Made by a program: the position numbers and the translations under genes
Notes under the pieces: model-generated
What the model saw: only the letters and a program-made list of their open reading frames with translations
Told to the model about the DNA's origin: nothing
Database searches by the model: none
Part shown: positions 20,543 to 64,000 of the stretch, piece after piece
How the letters are laid out: each line of letters starts with the position of its first letter
How positions within the stretch are numbered: the first letter of the stretch is position 1
Assembly (NCBI GenBank): GCA_949287595.1
Contig: CASEGV010000001.1
Coordinates: 129,982-193,981, forward strand
Length of the DNA stretch: 64,000 nucleotides
Origin: an uncultured Mycoplasmatota bacterium
GTDB taxonomy: Bacteria; Bacillota_I; Bacilli_A; RF39; UBA660
Reading direction: 5' to 3'

Positions 20543-21017
20543 ATACTTTTATTGGAAACAACCTAGCTATATCAAATAGTCTTATATACAATTTATTATA
20601 TTGATTCATAAAATCTGATACTAATGAATAATTGTTAAATACCCATTCACTATTCAGAGATTTTAATGTATCATCTTTACTCTTTAGATCCATCCAATAT
20701 TCCGTTACTATTGAATTACTTAACGAACCATGATACGATTGAGTATATGAATTAGACCTTATCATAAATATATTATCCCAAATTGGAATATTAGGTATAT
20801 CTAGAACATGAATGATAAGTTTTTTAATAAATATCGGTTCAAATTTATCATCAATTATACCAAATTCACTATTCCATTCAAATTCAAATGTTGATACTCT
20901 ATCTTCAATATTCCACTCTATAAATTTTTCTATCAATACCTTATATAAATCCTCCCATTCTTTCTTAGGAGAAGTTATTTTTATAGATTCTTTTTTAAAC
21001 TCTAATAAACTTTTCAT
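20535..21017 (-). CDS. Hypothetical protein
   Basis: Track ORF. Confidence 0.5.
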   Translation of the reverse strand: MKSLLEFKKESIKITSPKKEWEDLYKVLIEKFIEWNIEDRVSTFEFEWNSEFGIIDDKFEPIFIKKLIIHVLDIPNIPIWDNIFMIRSNSYTQSYHGSLSNSIVTEYWMDLKSKDDTLKSLNSEWVFNNYSLVSDFMNQYNKLYIRLFDIARLFPIKVYV

Positions 21018-22521
21018 AATATTCTCTTAAAACGATAAATCCTGCTTTCCAAACTAAGTTTAAATTTCTAAGCTGTAATTGAGTAGTTAAATATCCTGCT
21101 AGATATTCGAAAAATCCCTGTTCATTATTATTCTCTACAAATGAAAATAATATTGATAAATCTATATTAGTATTTTCCCACTTAAATCTATCAATAACAA
21201 GATATTTATTTAAGTCAAATCCTACTAAATTTGGTTGAAGAGAAGATAAATATGATCTCATTCTTCCCATTCTCTCACTACACAATTGATTGCCACATTT
21301 TAATAGACTTCCATATACATCTTTTTCAGACATTGTATATCCACATGGACAAGTAGGCCATTGAAAATCTCCATTACCTTCTTTAAATGATTCTCCAACC
21401 ATTGGAATAGTAGAGTTTGCCATTATAATACTAACAATAGATCCAGGAGTTATTTTCTTTGATACCATTTTACTAACACTTCCAGCAGAAGGTTTTTTTA
21501 TAGTACATCCTTTTATCTGTATTGGATTAATTAAAATATTCGCTGACCAACTATCTTTTCCTTTAGCAACTTGAGAATTCCATTGAATTCCTAATACTTC
21601 TGTTTTTACCAACTCAGTATCATTTCCAGCTCCAGAATATTTAAGCGCTCCTATACATACTCCCAACTTGTTGTATATTACCCAACCATCATTTAAAAAA
21701 TAACCGGTTGGAGTAATAGTTTTTAACGTTTCTGTATATCCAGGAGCAGATTCTAAATCCTTTAAAGTCCAAATTGATGCTGGTGCAAATAAAATATGTC
21801 CGTCTATAGGAGAATATGTGATTTCAAATGAATTTATTACATTTCTAAAATCATAATTATACGATTTCCAAAAACTTTCCTTATCGATATTAGGATCTAA
21901 ATAAAATCTATAAGCTCTTAATGTTAAATAATTATTTACTTCTGATACAAGATACTTAGAATTTACTAATCCATTAGCCTTTTGTCTTGCAGTATCTGGG
22001 TCAGAATCTCCCAATCTATTTAAATCTACAAGAGCTTCGGCTTGAATAGCAACAATACCTTTTGGAAACTTTTTCGGAAGAAAGCTTATTAATTTCCAAG
22101 TTTGATCTACACCATAGTTGTCTAAATTTAGATTTCCTACAGTTACAACTCTCATCGGAGTCCCAGTAGTAGGATCTATGTAAATAGCTATAGAAGCCCC
22201 ATCATATTTTAAATCATACAATAATTCTTCTCCAAACTCTCTCTCTACATTTCGAAGAGCATCTAACATAGATATTCCTTCTACTTTTTTCTTTTTTATT
22301 TTTTCTATCCAACTATTTTTGGTTTTTGTTCCTTTCAAATATGTATTAAATACATAATCTCTAGCAAAAAAACCATCTTCTTTTATTGCTCTTAATTCTA
22401 GCTCGTCAAATTCACTATCACTCATCCCTGTTGGAAGAGAATCGATATAATAATTTTTACAAGCTTGAATTAAAATTTTCCATTTTTCTAATGATTGTTC
22501 TGTAATGTTATTATTACACAT
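20995..22521 (-). CDS. NAD-dependent DNA ligase-like protein
   Basis: N-terminal YYIDSLPTGMSDSEFDELELRA (LigA Ia-domain pattern YY..D.P.ISD.EYD.L). Adenylation lysine context LYDLKYDGASIAIY (KxDG). Cys cluster WPTCPCG..LKCGNQLC at the LigA Zn-finger position. It is shorter than bacterial LigA and I saw no BRCT region. Confidence 0.6.
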   Translation of the reverse strand: MCNNNITEQSLEKWKILIQACKNYYIDSLPTGMSDSEFDELELRAIKEDGFFARDYVFNTYLKGTKTKNSWIEKIKKKKVEGISMLDALRNVEREFGEELLYDLKYDGASIAIYIDPTTGTPMRVVTVGNLNLDNYGVDQTWKLISFLPKKFPKGIVAIQAEALVDLNRLGDSDPDTARQKANGLVNSKYLVSEVNNYLTLRAYRFYLDPNIDKESFWKSYNYDFRNVINSFEITYSPIDGHILFAPASIWTLKDLESAPGYTETLKTITPTGYFLNDGWVIYNKLGVCIGALKYSGAGNDTELVKTEVLGIQWNSQVAKGKDSWSANILINPIQIKGCTIKKPSAGSVSKMVSKKITPGSIVSIIMANSTIPMVGESFKEGNGDFQWPTCPCGYTMSEKDVYGSLLKCGNQLCSERMGRMRSYLSSLQPNLVGFDLNKYLVIDRFKWENTNIDLSILFSFVENNNEQGFFEYLAGYLTTQLQLRNLNLVWKAGFIVLREYYEKFIRV

Positions 22522-23659: not shown

Positions 23660-25285
23660 TTATTTAATTAAATTATCTTCGTTTTTATCTTCTTCATCTA
23701 CAACTGTACAATCAATTAATAATATCATAGATGCAGCAGATACACTATTTTCGAGTGCTACTCTTAATGCTTTAGAAGAATCTAAAACACCTTCTTCCTC
23801 AAGATTACAATACTTCTTTGTTTTTGCATTGAAACCTACACCAGGTTTAGATGTTTTAATCTTTTCTAATACTACATCAGGAGATACTCCACAATTTTCT
23901 ACTACGGATTTCATAATAATTGGCAATGATTCTTGAAGAATTTTTGCTCCTTCAATCTCATCATCAACTAATGTTTTCCAGAACTCCTTATCTTTAGCCA
24001 ATTCAAGTGATGCTTTGAAATAAGTATATCCAGATCCGAGAGAACAACCTTCTGCCAAAGCACTCTTAGATGCCAAAATAGCATCTTCAACAGTTGCTTT
24101 AAGGTTTGCCCTTTCAATTTCACTAGCAGAACCAACTTTAATTAATCCAATACCTCCAGCTAATTGAGATAATCTAGAGCTATATTTCTTCTTATCGTAA
24201 TCACTAATGTCAGGATCAGAAATTCGATTTTTCAAAGTTTCAATTCTTTCACTAATAACACTCTTATCTCCATTTCCTTCATAGATAATACAAGAATCTC
24301 TAGATACAACAACTTTATTTGCTGTACCAAAATCCTCTAATGTAGCCTGATTAATTGAAATTCCATTTTCTGGATCCAAATATGTTCCACCAGTAAATAC
24401 TGCTAAATCAGCCATAATATTTTTTCTATTATCTCCAAAGTCTACTCCTTTAACTACACAACAACGAATATTTCCTTGAAGAGTATTAAGAATAAAAATA
24501 CCATTTACTTGATCAGACATATCATTACATACAATCAAGAAAGGCCGTCCACTTTTACACAAAGGCTCAATAATAGGACCTACTTGATTAAAATTACTAA
24601 TATTTTCTCCAACTACTATAATGTATGGATTCTCCATTACACATTTTGCATCAGATGGACTATTTACATACTGTGGACTAGACCATCCTTTAGTAAGTTT
24701 AAATCCTTGAACAATATCAATAGTCGTATCAATACCAGAAGAATAATCTGCTTGAATTTCTGCATCAGTTCCGATTTTTTCCATACATGACACTATTAGA
24801 TCTCCAATAGTAGAATCATTGTTAGCAGAAATTGTTGCTACCTTATGAATTTTATTAAGATCACCATCTACCTTAATAGAGTTCTTAGCAATATAGTTAG
24901 TAACCCATTTCTGAGCTTTCTTCATACCATCCTTAATTTCATTTACATTAGCTCCAGTACGAATTGCTTTTTGACCTTTAATCACCATTTCTTCAATAAG
25001 AGCTACTGTAGTTGAGGTTGAATCACCAGCTTGATCTTCAGTACTTGCAGCTGCTTTACGAACAATTTGAGCTCCAATATTTTCTTCTTGATCTTTAAAA
25101 GATATAGATTTACTAACAATACTACCATCTCGAGAAATTTCGGGACCAGTCATACTATTAGCAATTACTACATGTTTTCCTGCAGGACCAATAGTTGTTT
25201 TTACTGCATCTGCAATCTTTATAACACCACTAATTACTTTCTCACGTGATTCAGCTCCTTTAATAATTTTTTTTCCTTCTGCCAT
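23660..25285 (-). CDS. groEL: Chaperonin GroEL (Cpn60) homologue
   Basis: ADAVKTTIGPAGKHVVI, VATISANNDSTIGDLI and GGIGLIKVGSASEIE..LKATVEDAILASKSALAEG align with canonical GroEL segments. Length 541 aa. Confidence 0.9.
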   Translation of the reverse strand: MAEGKKIIKGAESREKVISGVIKIADAVKTTIGPAGKHVVIANSMTGPEISRDGSIVSKSISFKDQEENIGAQIVRKAAASTEDQAGDSTSTTVALIEEMVIKGQKAIRTGANVNEIKDGMKKAQKWVTNYIAKNSIKVDGDLNKIHKVATISANNDSTIGDLIVSCMEKIGTDAEIQADYSSGIDTTIDIVQGFKLTKGWSSPQYVNSPSDAKCVMENPYIIVVGENISNFNQVGPIIEPLCKSGRPFLIVCNDMSDQVNGIFILNTLQGNIRCCVVKGVDFGDNRKNIMADLAVFTGGTYLDPENGISINQATLEDFGTANKVVVSRDSCIIYEGNGDKSVISERIETLKNRISDPDISDYDKKKYSSRLSQLAGGIGLIKVGSASEIERANLKATVEDAILASKSALAEGCSLGSGYTYFKASLELAKDKEFWKTLVDDEIEGAKILQESLPIIMKSVVENCGVSPDVVLEKIKTSKPGVGFNAKTKKYCNLEEEGVLDSSKALRVALENSVSAASMILLIDCTVVDEEDKNEDNLIK

Positions 25286-57587: not shown

Positions 57588-59603
57588 ATGGCACGTTATC
57601 CTGGAACTCTTGAATCTGCAAATACTAATGAATTTGGTATAGTATTTGCAGATCATATTCAAGGTCATAGAACAGTTGCTAATCTGGAAGCACTATATAA
57701 ATTGTCCGATGCAATTCTTAGTAAATCTAAGAATAATACTGGAAATGATGCAATTGGTCAAGAATGGTATGTAATTTCGGAAAAAAGTGTATATAGATTA
57801 GATGATTGGGCTAATAGAAAACAAGCTAGTGGATGGAGAAAATTGCAAAATGTTGATACTGAATTTGACAGTCTTCAATCTCATGGTGCAGATAAGATAA
57901 AGAATTTTACCACTACTGCAAATGATGTAACCTTGAATTATAATACTTGGAAAAATTCAGAAACTAGTGAAGATGGAACAGCAGTTATTCCTGCTGCAAC
58001 CGGAGATAATGCTGGAGTACTAACAGCTAATGGAAAGGATCAATTAGATCAATTAAATAAAATAGGTTCAGTATCTCACATGAAAGATGCTGGAATATTT
58101 ACTAAATCAGCTAGTAAACTTACATTTAACTATAATTGTATTAGTACAACAGCTGGAGCTACCAGTGCAATTGAAACTAAGTATGAAGATATACCTGCTG
58201 CAACTGGAGATTTAGCCGGTGTATTAACAGCCGATGGAAAAGATCAGTTAGACCAATTAAATAAAATAAGAGAAGTTACTCACTTAAAAGATGGTGGAGT
58301 AATAACTACAGATGCAACTAAGGCTACAATTCACTATACATGCATTGATACAACAGCTGGAGCTACTAGTGAAACTGTAGAAAAAACTGCAGATATTCCA
58401 GCAGCTAGTTTAACCAATGCTGGAATGTTAGCTGCTGATCAGAGGAATCAGCTTGAACAGTTGAATAAATTAGGAGCAATATCTAAGATAAATGATTCAG
58501 ATGATGATACTACTCCTACATTTACTACTACAGAAGATACAGTAACTTTAAACTATAAGAATATATCATCAACAGCTGGAGCTAATTCTTCAGTAGTTAC
58601 TAAAACTGCAGATATTCCTGTAGTAACTCAGTCTAAAGCAGGAATAATGACATCAGCTGATAAAATTAATTTAGATATAACTATTCCTAATAAAATATCT
58701 GCTGAAACTAGTAGAGCTACTACTAAGGAAAATCAATTAGAGTCTACTATTAATAGTAATAAGGGAACTATAGATAATTATACTGTTAATGGTATAAAAA
58801 TATCTACTAATCCAGTAATAACTGGTGCTAATGCAAAAGTTACTGGATATACTAAACCTTCATCTACATCTGCTATCGCTGCTACAGATAGTATTAATGC
58901 CGCTTTAGGTAAGTTAGAGAAAAAAGCAGATGACCATATAGCAAATAAATCTAATCCTCATGGAGTAACTAAAGCTCAAGTAGGTTTAGGAAACTGTGAT
59001 AATACTAGTGACTTAAATAAGCCTATATCTACAGCTACACAAACTGCTTTAAATTCTAAGGTACAAACTGTAGAAGTCACAGGTACTGGTAATGCTATAA
59101 CAGCTGCATCTATTAGTGGAACTAAATTAACTTTAACTAAAGGTGCTACATATAATAATCAAACTTATACAGCTGGAACTAACTTAAGTTTATCAGGAAA
59201 TACATTTAGTTTAAATAGTACTATATCATTAACAAGAGTAAATGCTTCTAGTGGATTTTTTCAAACTTCTGATAAGAGATTGAAATCTGACATAAAACCG
59301 CTAGATCATTCTCTTGAAGATATTTGTTCTATCCCTACAGATTCATTTATCTTAAATGGAAAGAATGATTTTGGAACTATTGCACAAGAAGTTGAAGATA
59401 AATTTCCAGAACTAGTTTCTGAAGCTAGATTAAAAGAATCTGATGTAGATGAGCCTAGCAAGTTTGATAAAGTAGAAATTAACGGCGAATCTTATGTTTT
59501 AGTAAAAGAGGTAGATTATTCAAAGCTTAGTATATTAGCTATTGAAGGAATTAAACTTCTTAAGAAAGAAATAGAGGAGCTTAAAAAACAACTTAATAAA
59601 TAA
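57588..59603 (+). CDS. Tail fibre with a C-terminal intramolecular chaperone (peptidase S74-like) domain
   Basis: N-terminus is homologous to the giant fibre (GHRTVANLEALYK..NDAIGQEWYV). Repeats PAATGD.AGVLTA.GKDQLDQLNKI. C-terminal SDKRLKSDIKPL..FGTIAQEVEDKFPELV..DYSKLSILAIEGIKLLKKEIEELK fits the S74 autoproteolytic chaperone domain. Confidence 0.8.
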   Translation: MARYPGTLESANTNEFGIVFADHIQGHRTVANLEALYKLSDAILSKSKNNTGNDAIGQEWYVISEKSVYRLDDWANRKQASGWRKLQNVDTEFDSLQSHGADKIKNFTTTANDVTLNYNTWKNSETSEDGTAVIPAATGDNAGVLTANGKDQLDQLNKIGSVSHMKDAGIFTKSASKLTFNYNCISTTAGATSAIETKYEDIPAATGDLAGVLTADGKDQLDQLNKIREVTHLKDGGVITTDATKATIHYTCIDTTAGATSETVEKTADIPAASLTNAGMLAADQRNQLEQLNKLGAISKINDSDDDTTPTFTTTEDTVTLNYKNISSTAGANSSVVTKTADIPVVTQSKAGIMTSADKINLDITIPNKISAETSRATTKENQLESTINSNKGTIDNYTVNGIKISTNPVITGANAKVTGYTKPSSTSAIAATDSINAALGKLEKKADDHIANKSNPHGVTKAQVGLGNCDNTSDLNKPISTATQTALNSKVQTVEVTGTGNAITAASISGTKLTLTKGATYNNQTYTAGTNLSLSGNTFSLNSTISLTRVNASSGFFQTSDKRLKSDIKPLDHSLEDICSIPTDSFILNGKNDFGTIAQEVEDKFPELVSEARLKESDVDEPSKFDKVEINGESYVLVKEVDYSKLSILAIEGIKLLKKEIEELKKQLNK

Positions 59604-59612
59604 CATTAATAG

Positions 59613-59650
59613 ATAGGGAGGAGACTTATAACCTCTTCCCTATTATTTTA
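59613..59650 (+). terminator. Hairpin terminator
   Basis: ATAGGGAGGAG-(9 nt)-CTCTTCCCTAT followed by TATTTT. Confidence 0.5.
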
Positions 59651-59657
59651 ATATATT

Positions 59658-62387
59658 ATGGCAGCTCGAATTGTTTTAAAGAAAAATGAAGAATATTTTA
59701 GTACTGAAGAAGAAGCACTACAGGCTTTAAGAAATATTATATTTCAAAAAGGTGAACCTGCAGTAGCAATATATGGAAAAACTGAAGAAGATGCTAGAGT
59801 AATTCTTGCAATAGGTAAAGATAATGGAGTTGGAGATTCTTGTTTTGATGTAATTGCTACAACTCAATCTATAGATAATATATCTTCTATAATTAATTCA
59901 TTAGAGAATTCATTTAGTTCTCATGAATTATTATTAGCTAATGGGGATACTGTAGGACATGTAAAATCTAGTAATGATATAACATTTACTGATGGTGGTG
60001 GTATAGTTAATTCTGCAGGGAAAGTAAAAAATAAATTAATTTTTCAAGGAGGTTCAACAGGAGAATTTGATGGATCTAATAAGGTTACAATTAATATTCC
60101 ATTATCTAGTAATGAAACTCCAAAAATAAATTCAGGTAGTGGATCTCCTGGAACAAAAAATGATTGGTCAAGAGCTGATCATGTACATCCAGAGCAGATT
60201 AATATATCAGGAAATTCAGGAACAACTACTAAATTTCAAAATCCAAAATCTATAACTATTAAAGGAGCTGTTAATGGTAATGTTAGATCAGATTTTAGTG
60301 GAGATGTTGTAATTAATACTACACTCTCAGATCATACACACAGTATATCTCAGATTACTAATTTAACCGATGAGTTAAATAATAAAGCTCCTATTAATAA
60401 TCCAGTATTCACAGGGGTACCACAAGCACCAACAGCAAGTAAAGGAACTAATACTAAGCAACTAGCTACTACAGAATTTGTTATAGCAGAAATTCAAGAT
60501 AAGATACAGGCAGCAATAGCTCTTAGGTTTAAAGGAACTATAGGTAATGGTGGAACAATAACTGAATTGCCAAGTTCTCATACTACTGGAGATGTTTATC
60601 TATCTTTAATGGGTGCTCCAAATGTAGGAGATGAAGTATTAGAGCCAGGAGACTTAGTTATTTGTATAAAAGATGGATCTGAGAAAAATGACCTAGATTG
60701 GACTGTTGTTCAAACAAATATTGATGGCGCTGTAGTTGGGCCGTCAAGTTGTGTAAATGATAATATTCCAATTTTTAATGGAAATACTGGAAAATTAATA
60801 AAGGATTCAGGATTATCCTTATCTAATTTAGCAAAAACTTCTATAGCTATTCTTCCAGGAAAAGGTTTAGTTGGAGGAGGTGATCTAGGATCTACTAGAA
60901 CATTATCACATCAAGATAAACCATCTTCTGGGAATGATGCTGGAGGTAATGGTTCTTTTGTTACTGCTGTAAAGATAGATGATTTAGGACATGTAGTAGA
61001 AACATCTAAGGTATCATTAAGTGGGTCAGTTACTGCAGAATCTGGAAAATATATATCAAGTGTTAATCTTTCTGGAACTAAGTTATCAGGAACTACTTCA
61101 GATTTACCAAGATTATCAGTTTCTGGGGGAGAAGAAATATCTAATAACTATGTAACTGGAATATCTGTTGATGATCACTCTATAAAGGTTACTAAATCTC
61201 AATTAATAATACCTAATGTAGTTATTGATAATGGGGAAGAAGAAGATAATAAGTATATATCTTCAATTACATCTGAAGGGCATAACATAACTGTATCTAA
61301 AGTTTCTTTACCAGAAGAGTCCGGAAAAGTAAAAGTAACTGCAAATGGTCCTGCTGACTATCTATCTGAGAAAATAAAAACAGTTAGTAGAGAGAATAAT
61401 ATTTATCCAATTAACATTGAACATACTGATGAGGATATAGAATTAGGTATTACTATAGATAAAATTGATGGATCTGTATCAGATATTATTAGTAAAATTA
61501 TTCCAGAGTCTTCTACTCCTAACTTGAGTAATAAAGGAGAAATTGGTATTAGATTTAGTAATGATGGAACGTATGGATACCTTTATTCTAATTCAGGTAA
61601 TAGTACTATAAGACTTTATCCAAATGCTACAGAAACATTAGATGGATTAATGTCTAAGGAAGATAAAGTTAGACTAAACAATTTAGAAGATTCTACAATA
61701 GGAGGAATCAATAATAAAATAACAGAAGTATCTAATAAAGTTAATCAAGAAATTATTGATAGAGAGAATGCAGATACTCAATTAAATACTAAAATAGACG
61801 AAACTAATAGTAGCTTAGAAGAAAAAATAAATAATTTAGATACAAAAGTAGATAATCTAAGAGTAGTAAAATCTATTCAATTAGGTACTAATAAAGAATT
61901 ACTATATCCTTCTAGCGATGGAAATTTAATTATAAATGAAGTCTCCGGAGTTGATGGGAATCCCCCTGGACTTATGAATAATGCAGATAAAATAAAGTTA
62001 GATAGAATTATTTTTAATGGAGATGGGGAAAATTTTTTATCTAATTCTGGATATAAGACAATTCAAATAAGTAATGTATATAATTTAAATAGTGAATTAA
62101 GTAATATAAAAAGTTCTATTGAAAAAGTAAAAGATACTATTGGAACTTCAGAAGACGGATCTTTACCGAGTTTATCTGGAACAAATTATTTAAATGGAAA
62201 AACAACTATAATTGATTGTCTTAAAGCATTAGATTCACAAATAAAACTAATTTCTGATAAAATAGATTCTCACATAAGTAATAGTAATAATCCTCATAAT
62301 GTTACTAGAGATCAATTATCTCTTGGAGAAAATAATGAAGTTAGATTTAAAAAAGTATCATCTACAGATGGTTTTTTCGATGTATAA
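59658..62387 (+). CDS. Tail fibre protein (909 aa)
   Basis: NPVFTGVPQAPTASKGTNTKQLATTEFV (a common fibre motif), WSRADHVHP and DHTHSISQITNL His motifs, a C-terminal NNPHNVTRDQLSLG unit. Confidence 0.75.
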   Translation: MAARIVLKKNEEYFSTEEEALQALRNIIFQKGEPAVAIYGKTEEDARVILAIGKDNGVGDSCFDVIATTQSIDNISSIINSLENSFSSHELLLANGDTVGHVKSSNDITFTDGGGIVNSAGKVKNKLIFQGGSTGEFDGSNKVTINIPLSSNETPKINSGSGSPGTKNDWSRADHVHPEQINISGNSGTTTKFQNPKSITIKGAVNGNVRSDFSGDVVINTTLSDHTHSISQITNLTDELNNKAPINNPVFTGVPQAPTASKGTNTKQLATTEFVIAEIQDKIQAAIALRFKGTIGNGGTITELPSSHTTGDVYLSLMGAPNVGDEVLEPGDLVICIKDGSEKNDLDWTVVQTNIDGAVVGPSSCVNDNIPIFNGNTGKLIKDSGLSLSNLAKTSIAILPGKGLVGGGDLGSTRTLSHQDKPSSGNDAGGNGSFVTAVKIDDLGHVVETSKVSLSGSVTAESGKYISSVNLSGTKLSGTTSDLPRLSVSGGEEISNNYVTGISVDDHSIKVTKSQLIIPNVVIDNGEEEDNKYISSITSEGHNITVSKVSLPEESGKVKVTANGPADYLSEKIKTVSRENNIYPINIEHTDEDIELGITIDKIDGSVSDIISKIIPESSTPNLSNKGEIGIRFSNDGTYGYLYSNSGNSTIRLYPNATETLDGLMSKEDKVRLNNLEDSTIGGINNKITEVSNKVNQEIIDRENADTQLNTKIDETNSSLEEKINNLDTKVDNLRVVKSIQLGTNKELLYPSSDGNLIINEVSGVDGNPPGLMNNADKIKLDRIIFNGDGENFLSNSGYKTIQISNVYNLNSELSNIKSSIEKVKDTIGTSEDGSLPSLSGTNYLNGKTTIIDCLKALDSQIKLISDKIDSHISNSNNPHNVTRDQLSLGENNEVRFKKVSSTDGFFDV

Positions 62388-62399
62388 TATAGTACAACT

Positions 62400-62720
62400 A
62401 TGAAAAAAATTATATATTCAGTATTATTAGCTATTTTTATTCTTTTTATTGTATCTTGTGCAACTAAAAGAAAGTTTTTAACTACTTTTTTCGAAATATA
62501 TACAAATACCCCAGAAAATGTAATAGATAGTATTTGTGCTAGCAATCTAATCCCTGAAAGTAATTTTTATAATTGGAGTAAAAGTATGTATTTTGGATCT
62601 GATTCCGTTATAACAGAGCAATATGTTAAATATATTCAAAAAGAAGATACTACATACATATTCTCAGTAACAAAGGAAAAAGGTGATAGTATTTATTTTA
62701 TAAAATTTAGAAAGGAGTAA
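62400..62720 (+). CDS. Putative lipoprotein
   Basis: MKKIIYSVLLAIFILFIVSC, a lipobox-like leader. Confidence 0.55.
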   Translation: MKKIIYSVLLAIFILFIVSCATKRKFLTTFFEIYTNTPENVIDSICASNLIPESNFYNWSKSMYFGSDSVITEQYVKYIQKEDTTYIFSVTKEKGDSIYFIKFRKE

Positions 62721-62724
62721 ACAT

Positions 62725-63039
62725 ATGGACATTATATCATGTTTTGAAACTTTTGCTGCAGTAGTAGCATTAATCCCAGTAGTAACTGAAGGAATTAAAA
62801 GTTTAATTAAAAAAGAATTACCTAGTTGGGCAAACCAATTAATATCTTGGATAGTTGCTTTATTAATAGCAATATTTGGACAGTTCTTTAACCTCGGCGT
62901 ATTTGCTGATGTAAATTGGTGGCAATCTTTAATTATTGGAGCTTTTGCAGGACTAGCATCTAATGGTATTTGGGATATTAATGTTGTACAGCAATTATTA
63001 AAACTTATTTTCAGTAAAATTAAAGTAAGTAGTAAATAA
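62725..63039 (+). CDS. Holin-like small membrane protein
   Basis: 104 aa, three hydrophobic segments, immediately upstream of the peptidase gene. Confidence 0.5.
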   Translation: MDIISCFETFAAVVALIPVVTEGIKSLIKKELPSWANQLISWIVALLIAIFGQFFNLGVFADVNWWQSLIIGAFAGLASNGIWDINVVQQLLKLIFSKIKVSSK

Positions 63040-63057
63040 ATTTTAAAAAATTAATCT

Positions 63058-63642
63058 ATGAAACATTTTTATGGTTATATTAAAACAGATAACTTAGAAT
63101 CTTATCAAGAATATAATCCTGAGGTTAGTGAATTACCCAAAGAATATAAACTTAAGGATCTAGGTGAAGTATGGGACCAAGGAAATAAAGGATCCTGTGT
63201 TAGCTGCAGTATTTCTGAAATGTATAACTTTTATCAAGTATCTCATGGGAAAAAGTTAGATATCCCATTTACATATGTATATGATAAAAGATCAGATAAA
63301 AGTTTAGACGGAATGCAACCAGCTGAAGGATTTAAAATATTATCTAATGAAGGGAAGATAAAAATGTTTTCTAGAATATCAACTCTAGATTCATTAAAAC
63401 AATCTATATTAGCTAATGGACCAGCTCTTATTGGCATGACAGTTAGAGATACAGATAGAACAGATTTTTGGAATGGTCCTACTGCACAAAATATAGGACA
63501 TGCTGTGGCAGTGGTCGGATATAATCAGGATTCTTTAATTATTAAAAATTCTTGGGGATATTCGTATGGAGAATATGGATATTGGTATTTACCATTTAGT
63601 GATTTTCGAGTAGTTAAGGAGGCTTGGACTATAATAAAATGA
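63058..63642 (+). CDS. Papain-like cysteine peptidase (C1 family pattern); candidate endolysin
   Basis: QGNKGSCVSCS (papain QGxCGSCWAFS), IGHAVAVVGY (GHAVxxVGY), IIKNSWGYSYGEYGYWYL (xxKNSWGxxWGxxGY). Confidence 0.7.
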   Translation: MKHFYGYIKTDNLESYQEYNPEVSELPKEYKLKDLGEVWDQGNKGSCVSCSISEMYNFYQVSHGKKLDIPFTYVYDKRSDKSLDGMQPAEGFKILSNEGKIKMFSRISTLDSLKQSILANGPALIGMTVRDTDRTDFWNGPTAQNIGHAVAVVGYNQDSLIIKNSWGYSYGEYGYWYLPFSDFRVVKEAWTIIK

Positions 63643-63983
63643 AAAATATAACTAATTATATTATAGTAGTGTTATCTATCTTCATATCAATTATAATAAG
63701 TTGTACAAATACAATTAACACATTATCAGAAGATCAACTTATTGGAGTGTGGAGGATTAATAATAACAATGATATAATATATTTTAAAAATGATAATACA
63801 TTTGTACTAACGGATTGGACTTGTAATAGAGTATATAAAAAAGGAAATTGGGAATTAAAAGAGGAATACTCTATGATAGAAATTAATGATAGTTTATTAT
63901 TTAAAATAGATGATATTGAATATGATAAAATAATTTTTAATAATGATACTATATTTAAAGTTTATAATTTAAATCCCAAATAA
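63624..63983 (+). CDS. Putative lipoprotein (spanin-like position)
   Basis: Leader IIVVLSIFISIIISCT. Overlaps the end of the peptidase gene. Confidence 0.45.
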   Translation: MDYNKMKNITNYIIVVLSIFISIIISCTNTINTLSEDQLIGVWRINNNNDIIYFKNDNTFVLTDWTCNRVYKKGNWELKEEYSMIEINDSLLFKIDDIEYDKIIFNNDTIFKVYNLNPK

Positions 63984-64000
63984 TAATAAAAAAGATCATA

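Follow-up and report, generated by a model that had tools for sequence, protein, structure and literature searches.

A papain-type cysteine peptidase and an orphan lipoprotein form a two-gene phage module, with a holin-family gene between them in a jumbo-phage clade

Introduction

The Bacteroidota count among them the most abundant bacteria of the human gut, and little is known of the way in which their phages break through the outer layers of the cell. Four tightly packed genes at positions 62400-63983 of a 64-kb window (the whole stretch of DNA that was analyzed) bring this question to a single locus. In order, their products are the lipoprotein LP1, a holin-like membrane protein, a peptidase of 194 aa, and another lipoprotein, LP2. 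An earlier note, drawn from the sequence only, described them as a lysis-like cassette built around a papain-type (C1) cysteine peptidase, and suggested that this enzyme was either the endolysin or a protease with a protein target at the host surface. Is the peptidase the endolysin of this phage, and if it is not, with which partner does it act? Short C1A peptidases acquired by Myoviridae and Siphoviridae are already on record (PMC10380794). In the literature searched, no function was assigned to these phage copies or to the LP1-peptidase pair.

Results

The window was taken from contig C1, a circular jumbo phage genome of ~371 kb (~370.9 kb) that had been binned into a MAG. The contig has an 80-bp terminal overlap and carries 15 tRNAs, GroEL, and a NAD ligase. 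These features identify it as a circular phage genome, and they rule out a prophage inside the MAG. The host is probably a member of the Bacteroidota. By its type, the ~371-kb phage is a giant gut-type phage. Two tail-fibre genes on the forward strand (57588-62387), encoding proteins of 671 and 909 aa, are located directly upstream of the cassette. The 671-aa protein matched the PHROG families phrog_35419 and phrog_1980 (both ~1e-12), and the 909-aa protein matched phrog_7032 (4e-12). A terminator-like hairpin flanked by T runs begins on the forward strand two positions after LP2 (63985-64000) and continues ~23 nt beyond the window end. In the terminator scan its 18-pair stem was placed at L001 2428-2466, which corresponds to window positions 63985-64023. 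The cassette is the end of a late tail-fibre operon, ahead of this hairpin. ORF coordinates bore out the gene order given in the earlier note: lipoprotein, holin-like protein, 194-aa enzyme, and overlapping lipoprotein. The last of these, LP2 (63639-63983, forward strand, 114 aa, lipobox IIIS-C), has an ATGA overlap with the stop codon of the peptidase gene. Its most likely start is ATG 63639 rather than TTG 63624.

The peptidase gene (63058-63642, forward strand) is present as a single copy in the assembly and encodes a true short, xylellain-type peptidase of the C1A papain family with an active site that is intact by sequence. The 194-aa protein matched Pfam Peptidase_C1 (PF00112) with E = 8.8e-10 and 39.5 bits (cut-off 20.7 bits), and among PDB sequences it matched xylellain (2.6e-9, phmmer) and papain (3e-7). 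Its AF2 model (pLDDT 93.5, pTM 0.90) has the two-lobed papain fold. The best 50 Foldseek matches of this model in the PDB were all C1A enzymes, headed by xylellain (3OIS, TMq 0.83, E 5e-12). Precomputed Pfam entries were available for 50 of 53 database homologues, and all 50 were PF00112. The predicted catalytic residues, a Cys47-His148 dyad with Asn164 and the oxyanion-hole residue Gln41, lie in the papain motifs QGxxGSC, GHA, and NSWG and were, together with Ser165 and Trp166, invariant in 24 homologues. The three motifs from which a C1 papain-type enzyme had originally been recognized, QGNKGSCVSCS, GHAVAVVGY, and KNSWGYSYGEYGYWY, are present in the sequence, and that identity was upheld, far beyond what chance would give, by Pfam, by the PDB sequence matches, and by the AF2 model with Foldseek.

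The earlier note had also named profile classification as a check and had stated that the enzyme lacks the usual endolysin folds. Classification by profile gave C1A and not CHAP/NlpC-P60, and the enzyme did not match any profile of the CHAP, NlpC/P60, lysozyme, or amidase kind. The Pfam scan returned only C1 and a weak Peptidase_C39_2 match, with neither PF05257 nor PF00877 at E<=1, and CHAP and NlpC structures were absent among the best 50 Foldseek matches. No signal peptide, transmembrane helix, or hydrophobic N-terminus was found in the peptidase. Pfam gave no match to an I29-type prodomain, and only ~40 residues precede Gln41. Without signal peptide and I29 prodomain the enzyme falls into the short xylellain-type subgroup, still inside C1A. 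Xylellain itself, a C1A enzyme of Xylella fastidiosa, has the same Gln-Cys-His-Asn catalytic set, a short N-terminal extension in place of the I29 prodomain, and an N-terminal YGYI motif that it has in common with the phage peptidase (printed alignment). The two proteins are 22% identical in the structural alignment. The phage protein is the shorter one (194 aa) and, unlike xylellain, it is phage-encoded and tied to a dedicated lipoprotein gene.

The gene between LP1 and the peptidase gene (62725-63039, forward strand) encodes a 104-aa membrane protein that has 2-3 TM helices and ends in a C-terminal tail rich in Lys. By homology and neighbourhood this protein belongs to a holin family, and hole formation is predicted. 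It matched the PHROG holin families phrog_1299 (1.1e-6) and phrog_1129 (4.6e-4), and weakly Pfam Phage_holin_3_1 (0.036). Matches in tblastn were confined to Bacteroidota phages. The homologue in P. gingivalis phages is annotated 'holin', and in PP754930.1 and BK010646.1 (Porphyromonas and Bacteroides phages) homologues are located directly after Amidase_2 lysins. Of the initial description as a three-helix holin-like protein, the holin family was supported by PHROG and by the neighbours of homologues, and the helix count was not, as only two of the three helices passed a strict hydropathy threshold.

LP1 (62400-62720, forward strand, 106 aa) has a signal helix and a lipobox (LFIVS-C20), followed by a folded alpha/beta domain of ~85 aa. 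In the alignment of homologues C20 and W59 were invariant, and D43-S44 nearly so. The AF2 model (pLDDT 93) shows the secondary-structure order strand-helix-four strands. LP1 homologues formed 498 clusters in a library of 1.84 billion proteins. No Pfam or PHROG family was found for LP1, and its fold had no PDB match in Foldseek, where the best hit was an unrelated protein (E=1e-3, TMq 0.42). As LP1 is without recognisable fold or family, it would be guesswork to call it an anchor, an activator, or an inhibitor. Neither of two candidate classes found support. For a spanin the only indication was a PHROG Rz-like match with E=0.013. An o-spanin or u-spanin was rejected because LP1 has the lipobox but no C-terminal TMD, and an o-spanin also because the cassette has no type-II TM coiled-coil i-spanin partner and LP1 is a compact folded domain. 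A cystatin-, chagasin-, or staphostatin-type inhibitor was unsupported, with no such fold among the best 50 PDB Foldseek matches, and Foldseek against BFVD gave no support for a cystatin-like inhibitor.

The conserved unit is LP1 plus peptidase, an obligate two-gene module. An LP1 homologue adjoined the peptidase on its upstream side in 82 of 90 peptidase-seeded loci, on contigs of 4.5 to 412 kb. Start and stop codons of the two genes often overlap. In the reverse test seeded with LP1, a PF00112 gene was located directly downstream in 18 of 18 cases (13/13 viral motif-seeded loci and 5/5 contigs). The LP1 motif used for viral seeding was derived from a sub-alignment, as the full LP1 alignment has no conserved stretch. 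The holin gene is inserted between the two partners in 31 of the 90 loci (this phage and 30 related ones), all on jumbo-phage-type contigs, and in the jumbo clade only. In ~29 of 39 non-redundant lineages there was no holin-like ORF near the pair. Over the 39 non-redundant loci, the density of small multi-TM ORFs was raised ~3-fold at distances of up to 1.5-1.8 kb from the pair (11 in 151 kb vs. 7 in 306 kb), a modest enrichment (roughly p~0.04, Poisson estimate).

The surroundings of the pair vary. It is often found beside genes of replication and nucleotide metabolism (DnaB, NrdD, Rep3, dUTPase), and elsewhere at the start of baseplate modules, so that its position in general does not imply a role in lysis. 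A Lak megaphage homologue of the peptidase has no adjacent LP1 and follows a 428-aa protein. Among 185,579 species-representative cellular genomes no close relative of the compact peptidase family was found (best 27% identity). The family therefore looks specific to phage contigs, and as the scan returned only distant C1 relatives, at no more than 27-30% identity, it gave no prophage or host clue.

These neighbourhoods could be taken to mean that the peptidase works in the cytoplasm, where it would degrade or process host or phage proteins (takeover, anti-defence, or maturation), its adjacency to LP1 reflecting co-inheritance only. The missing export signal, the many phages in which the pair is placed among replication and nucleotide-metabolism genes, and the Lak homologue without LP1 are in line with this. 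We nevertheless regard it as very unlikely, because the reciprocal linkage (18/18) to an exported lipoprotein, kept over highly diverged phages, is difficult to account for unless there is a functional tie to the envelope, to which the holin insertion in the jumbo clade also points, and because a C1 protease of broad specificity, left unregulated in the cytoplasm, would put the phage's own proteins at risk.

The same linkage can be read as that of an enzyme and its dedicated inhibitor. LP1 would then be a periplasmic lipoprotein inhibitor in an immunity or exclusion pair, and the peptidase would act outside the producing cell, carried or ejected by virions or freed at lysis, against host surface proteins, receptors on debris, or competitors. 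LP1 would shield the infected cell or block the same enzyme of superinfecting phages. T4 Spackle, which acts against gp5 lysozyme, is an analogue. Enzyme-inhibitor pairs typically show a linkage of this kind, strictly one to one and in many cases with translational coupling. In this window, as often elsewhere, the pair also borders on baseplate or tail genes. We also counted in its favour that the strand-helix-four strands order of LP1 resembles what we take to be the cystatin layout, an assumption of ours rather than the result of a tool. A precedent is known in Bacteroides fragilis, where the Bfp C10 papain-fold proteases are co-transcribed with predicted lipoprotein inhibitors of 116-138 aa, the staphostatin-like Bfi, and where one Bfp-Bfi pair is located on a prophage-like element (PMC2873492). 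The two systems have in common a papain-fold cysteine protease gene beside a small lipoprotein gene, in Bacteroidota or, for the phage, in a probable Bacteroidota host. They differ in that Bfp is a C10 enzyme with a signal and lipoprotein leader and a prodomain, that Bfp and Bfi are both exported, and that LP1 has no sequence or fold similarity to staphostatins. An inhibitor pair is further opposed by the absence of cystatin, chagasin, and staphostatin among the best 50 PDB matches for LP1, and by the different compartments predicted for a signal-less enzyme and an exported lipoprotein, which mean that LP1 cannot protect the cytoplasm. Finally, the peptidase is a free 194-aa protein without a virion-attachment domain. 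Overall we consider an inhibitor pair unlikely, while still giving it some weight.

A search of the rest of the genome for a conventional endolysin, another check named in the earlier note, was positive. Twelve Pfam hydrolase families were profile-searched over the whole assembly, with CHAP, VanY, M15_3, and Hydrolase_2 outside the search of contig C1. A canonical stand-alone Amidase_3 (198 aa, 93.6 bits) was found at G000:C1:111728-112324, ~18 kb upstream of the window. The same phage has a glucosaminidase domain inside a 1076-aa protein (domain at C1:350903-351262). On contig C1 the Pfam search gave no Amidase_2, Phage_lysozyme, SLT, Peptidase_M15_4, GH108, GH25, NLPC_P60, or M23, and no GH19, a negative that carries no information, as GH19 was not matched in any control genome either. 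A phage without a canonical hydrolase is ruled out by the Amidase_3 and the glucosaminidase on C1. Each of the four further phage records that were checked, relatives with the same peptidase among them, also has ordinary wall hydrolases: Amidase_3 in G003 and MT121960.1, and glucosaminidases of 170-190 aa in G001 and G002, the one in G002 with an N-terminal membrane helix (SAR-type). Since canonical wall hydrolases were found in every genome checked, peptidoglycan cleavage does not require the peptidase, and with an Amidase_3 elsewhere in the phage the peptidase is more likely an extra envelope-breaking factor than the endolysin.

An endolysin or co-endolysin would, after holin action, cut stem peptides or cross-links, with LP1 and LP2 as spanin-like outer-membrane factors. 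Multi-enzyme endolysin sets exist, and the layout of the cassette fits such a role: the enzyme has no signal peptide or prodomain, is encoded directly downstream of a holin-family gene, and stands between lipoproteins at the end of a late operon. The papain-fold CHAP, NlpC/P60, and Amidase_5 enzymes are, moreover, established wall hydrolases, but every papain-fold enzyme known to cleave the wall falls in the NlpC/P60-CHAP cluster and none in the papain/C1 cluster (PMC10318531). The catalytic domain of the peptidase is thus outside the families with demonstrated peptidoglycan hydrolase activity. The Amidase_3 in the same genome and the canonical hydrolases in 4/4 other records also speak against an endolysin, as do the many lineages in which no holin adjoins the pair, and LP1, a folded domain without C-terminal TMD or i-spanin partner, is unlike o-spanins and u-spanins. 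We therefore judge this role to be quite improbable. The proposal that the peptidase is the endolysin was weakened by the Amidase_3 on C1, by the lack of an adjoining holin in most lineages, and by LP1 being the one constant neighbour. Of the outcomes that had been named as speaking against it, a canonical endolysin elsewhere was found and a reclassification of the enzyme as CHAP/NlpC-P60 was not. The alternative offered in the earlier note, that the enzyme acts on a protein of the surface or envelope, is now the more likely of the two.

Discussion

The explanation that we favour, at somewhat less than an even chance, is an accessory envelope or lysis module in which the peptidase is released through the holin, has LP1 as a partner in the periplasm, and cleaves a target protein. 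The peptidase would build up in the cytoplasm late in infection and would get to the periplasm only once the holin permeabilises the inner membrane. There LP1, already anchored in the envelope, may dock, activate, or regulate it. The substrate would be an envelope protein, for example the tethers between outer membrane and wall or other outer-membrane proteins, so that the peptidase would aid a step after wall degradation, the wall itself presumably being cut by the conventional Amidase_3 of the phage.

Several results argue for such an accessory module. The peptidase has neither signal nor TM helix while the lipobox Cys of LP1 is invariant, the two genes are strictly linked (82/90 and 18/18), and the enzyme combines C1A identity with intact catalytic residues. 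The holin family that flanks Amidase_2 endolysins elsewhere is placed between the partners in the jumbo clade, multi-TM ORFs are enriched near the pair, and the cassette lies between the tail-fibre genes and the terminator. Canonical hydrolases in each genome checked, the lack of a known wall cleaver in the C1 cluster (PMC10318531), and a compact peptidase family without close cellular relative are also consistent with it. Against it stand the ~29 of 39 lineages without a holin-like ORF, the pairs beside replication genes, the Lak homologue without LP1, the lack of a recognisable fold in LP1, and the modest size of the multi-TM enrichment. A bolder version, which we hold to be unlikely, is that LP1 and the peptidase are a new class of outer-membrane release in Bacteroidota phages that replaces spanins. 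LP1 would capture the protease at the outer membrane after holin and amidase have acted, the tethers between outer membrane and wall would be severed, and virions would be freed by proteolysis and not by membrane fusion.

Compared with a lambda S-R-Rz/Rz1-type cassette, the locus has the same small multi-TM holin-family gene beside genes for a signal-less enzyme and lipoproteins, and the same place at the end of a late operon before a terminator. It differs in that the enzyme is a C1 protease and not a known wall hydrolase, with a separate Amidase_3 elsewhere, that there is no i-spanin, and that LP1 forms a folded domain where an o-spanin would be short and Pro-rich. In most lineages, moreover, the pair is without any holin. 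The proposed role may, by analogy only, resemble that of mycobacteriophage LysB (PMC5707550) and that of the phiKT disruptin (bioRxiv 10.1101/515445), extra factors encoded among the lysis genes that act against an outer layer other than peptidoglycan after the wall has been cut. LysB is an esterase and disruptin a cationic peptide, whereas the phage factor here is a cysteine protease, and neither is known to have a lipoprotein partner.

The module unites a true papain-family protease with an orphan lipoprotein and surrounds a holin in one clade. It is also widespread, LP1 comprising ~500 sequence clusters and the pair occurring on phage contigs of up to ~410 kb. These properties make it a concrete candidate for the lysis step that is missing or, alternatively, for an exclusion system of a new protease-inhibitor type. 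In either case, if true, the repertoire of phage lysis and exclusion would gain a new enzymatic activity and the LP1 family a function. As ordinary amidases or glucosaminidases are also present in these phages, the peptidase gene should not be annotated 'endolysin'.

LP2, for which no Pfam match was obtained, had homologues in 4 of the 90 loci, confined to the closest relatives. The LP1-peptidase gene pair is common to hundreds of related phages.

A phage cassette with a papain-type peptidase

The cassette consists of four same-strand ORFs, located downstream of two tail-fibre genes according to the ORF listing and the raw sequence. The first encodes the lipoprotein LP1 (62400-62720; 106 aa), whose hydrophobic N-terminal helix has the lipobox LFIVS-C at its end. 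It is followed after 4 nt by the gene of a holin-like membrane protein (62725-63039; 104 aa), and after a further 18 nt by the peptidase gene (63058-63642; 194 aa). Translation of the second lipoprotein, LP2, most plausibly begins with the ATG at 63639, whose overlap with the stop codon of the peptidase gene reads ATGA. A long hairpin with T runs on either side begins 2 nt past LP2 and extends beyond the window end. The gene set and order of the earlier note were thus retained, whereas its LP2 start was not, and the third of its holin helices is only weakly hydrophobic. In a relative on a 379-kb contig (L002, 1782-4985), two LRR-repeat proteins of 465 and 600 aa, with weak to faint Pfam LRR matches, lie between the LP1-holin unit and the peptidase, which shows that the cassette can be interrupted with all its parts retained.

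The three peptidase motifs quoted in the earlier note were all found in the sequence, and its assignment to the C1 papain-type peptidases was borne out. Pfam scanning of the 194-aa protein returned Peptidase_C1 (E = 8.8e-10; 39.5 bits against a cut-off of 20.7 bits) and, more weakly, Peptidase_C39_2 of the same clan; no wall-hydrolase family was among the Pfam matches, and PHROGs annotates the protein as "peptidase" only. Phmmer searches of PDB sequences gave xylellain as the best match (3OIS, 2.6e-9), followed by papain, cathepsins, and other C1A enzymes. Across 24 aligned homologues (34-79% identity), Gln41, Cys47, His148, Asn164, Ser165, and Trp166 were invariant. The AlphaFold2 model built from this alignment (pLDDT 93.5) was compared with the PDB by Foldseek, and the best 50 matches were all C1A enzymes, with xylellain on top (TMq 0.83). 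A signal peptide, a TM helix, and an I29 prodomain were searched for and none was present; the stretch ahead of the oxyanion Gln is approximately 40 residues long, and the protein has an N-terminal YGYI motif in common with xylellain. Taken together, profile, PDB match, invariant residues, model, and the lack of signal, TM helix, and I29 indicate that the protein is a genuine short xylellain-type C1A peptidase with an intact active site, and apparently active. An identity as CHAP or NlpC/P60 was ruled out.

Of the 53 homologues in the protein database, which are 154-230 aa long, 50 have a PF00112 entry, and a scan of 185,579 representative cellular genomes gave no close relative of the compact family. 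That tailed phages carry xylellain-type C1A genes is already published, short forms having been acquired by Myoviridae and Siphoviridae (PMC10380794); we found no published paper assigning them a function.

Phage genome and host

The window (G000:C1:129982-193981) belongs to a contig of 370,971 bp and 27% GC whose first 80 bases recur at its end, and which is therefore circular. Its 15 tRNA genes lie in a cluster between 20 and 53 kb, and the window encodes, on the minus strand, a GroEL-type chaperonin (23660-25285; PHROG match 2e-121) and a NAD-dependent DNA-ligase-like protein (20995-22521). From these features we conclude that the contig is the complete genome of a jumbo phage that was binned into a 2.1-Mb, 29%-GC MAG, and on the same grounds we rejected a prophage. 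In size, GC content, and the use of code 11 it agrees with the published account of the "Jug" gut jumbo phages (PMC12880540).

The host is likely a member of the Bacteroidota, an indirect assignment based on the relatives of the phage. Tblastn with the holin-like protein matched only Bacteroides, Porphyromonas, and Croceibacter phages and three faecal "Bacteriophage sp." records, and a related phage with the same gene pair encodes BACON domains. The MAG itself may not be the host, since its other contigs hold five GH25 genes and numerous M23 genes, with no SLT or Amidase_2 in a profile search of the assembly.

Conventional wall hydrolases

Twelve Pfam families of wall hydrolases were surveyed over the whole assembly and, from the second family on, in up to four other peptidase-carrying phage records. 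Amidase_2, Phage_lysozyme, SLT, Peptidase_M15_4, GH108, GH25, NLPC_P60, and M23 had no match on the phage contig. GH19 had none there nor in any control genome, making that search uninformative. A stand-alone Amidase_3 of 198 aa (C1:111728-112324; 93.6 bits over the full model) was found 18 kb ahead of the window start, amid nucleotide-metabolism genes and with no convincing holin beside it. This N-acetylmuramoyl-L-alanine amidase is most likely the true endolysin of the phage. A Glucosaminidase domain (PF01832; C1:350903-351262) lies within a 1076-aa ORF, whose product may be a virion-associated wall hydrolase for entry.

Close homologues of the same Amidase_3 occur in the closest relative (G003, from IMG/VR) and in MT121960.1. 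A second relative, G001, has a glucosaminidase of 190 aa, and a third, G002, has one of 170 aa that carries a membrane helix at its N-terminus and lies 4.5 kb away from the LP1-peptidase pair; G002 also has a Peptidase_M15_3 domain at the start of a 905-aa protein. Every genome examined (the phage contig, G001-G003, and MT121960.1) thus has an ordinary wall hydrolase, and the role of "the" endolysin does not call for the peptidase. The earlier note had raised that role, which the Amidase_3 and glucosaminidase domain on the contig speak against; we consider it improbable that the peptidase is a true endolysin or co-endolysin.

The phage genome G002 (IMGVR_UViG_3300012662_000001, loci L173-L178) is complete, with terminal repeats, a length of 106.5 kb, and 45% GC. 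A 62-aa TM protein adjoins its glucosaminidase, and further genes are those of 5-hmdU DNA kinases (enzymes of base hypermodification), of GroEL, DNA pol III alpha, and BACON-domain proteins, and of an intein/LAGLIDADG element.

The peptidase is paired with a lipoprotein

A viral-contig scan with the peptidase yielded 191 relatives, from which 80 loci were kept; ORFs were called in 90 loci and searched iteratively with all four window proteins. LP1 homologues were present in 82 of the 90, nearly always directly upstream on the same strand and often overlapping the peptidase start, and LP2 homologues in four. In MT121960.1 the place of LP1 is taken by an alignable 108-aa lipoprotein. All 13 viral loci retrieved with the LP1 motif were on contigs already known to carry the peptidase, and with divergent LP1 proteins as seeds a PF00112 gene lay directly downstream on five of five contigs. 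The linkage is reciprocal. An exception is a Lak megaphage (Prevotella phage Lak-B7, MK250026.1; L197, 1486-2115), where a 209-aa peptidase homologue, open only with five in-frame TAG codons read as Gln, directly follows a 428-aa Gly-rich-tailed protein and has no LP1-type lipoprotein upstream.

The LP1 profile matched 498 clusters among 1.84 billion representatives; among the matches listed, almost all have a single domain and a length of about 100-125 aa, and there is no fusion to a peptidase. The lipobox Cys and one Trp are invariant, and an Asp-Ser nearly so. The model is confident (pLDDT 93), with a signal helix followed by a strand, a helix, and four strands. LP1 had no family in Pfam or PHROG, and BFVD held only two homologues, neither named. 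LP1 could be an inhibitor of the protease, or the two an exclusion pair; B. fragilis C10 proteases with their lipoprotein Bfi inhibitors (PMC2873492) offer a precedent. The fold search, in which LP1 had no significant PDB match, lends this explanation no support, and we consider it unlikely. Neither the LP1 family, nor its strict pairing with the peptidase, nor the variant that contains a holin was described in any paper that we found. We regard the cassette as a good starting point for experiments rather than as a proven new system.

A possible accessory role in lysis

PHROG holin families matched the 104-aa protein at 1.1e-6 and 4.6e-4. Its homologue in the P. gingivalis phage PP754930.1 is annotated "holin" and directly follows an "endolysin" (Amidase_2), and that in Bacteroides phage p00 (BK010646.1) directly follows a "lysin" (Amidase_2). 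Homology and neighbourhood together support a putative holin function. The protein occurred in 31 of the 90 loci, all on jumbo-phage-type contigs and between LP1 and the peptidase.

Four points are firm: the peptidase, predicted to be active, is unable to exit the cytoplasm unaided; LP1, an exported lipoprotein, is its obligate genetic partner; in one clade a holin is inserted between them; and the genome has ordinary wall hydrolases elsewhere. A cytoplasmic role of the peptidase is improbable. In the simplest model, peptidase and LP1 would come together only once the holin opens the inner membrane; in the periplasm, the protease would be positioned, activated, or regulated by LP1 and would cleave an envelope protein. 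Such a protein-cutting step after the holin would make the pair an accessory, post-endolysin lysis function, a reading that we favour tentatively, at somewhat below even confidence. By analogy only, this role would resemble that of LysB or the disruptins, which are accessory lysis factors.

In the phage of the window, the late operon closes with the pair and the holin together, a clear association. Outside the jumbo clade the pair adjoins dUTPase and helicase genes, a Rep3-type initiator, DNA methylases, or DnaB, NrdD, and homing endonucleases just ahead of baseplate genes. Close to the pair (within 1.5-1.8 kb), small multi-TM ORFs show an approximately three-fold enrichment (11 in 151 kb vs. 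7 in 306 kb); of the 39 non-redundant lineages, only about 10 have them there. Given these varied neighbours, the pair is not a lysis module in general by position alone. In several lineages (L194, L196, L061, and L077) it lies exactly where an anaerobic ribonucleotide reductase/replication block meets baseplate genes (gp25-like and Baseplate_J-like), a position that gives a hint of late or structural co-expression also where no holin is present.
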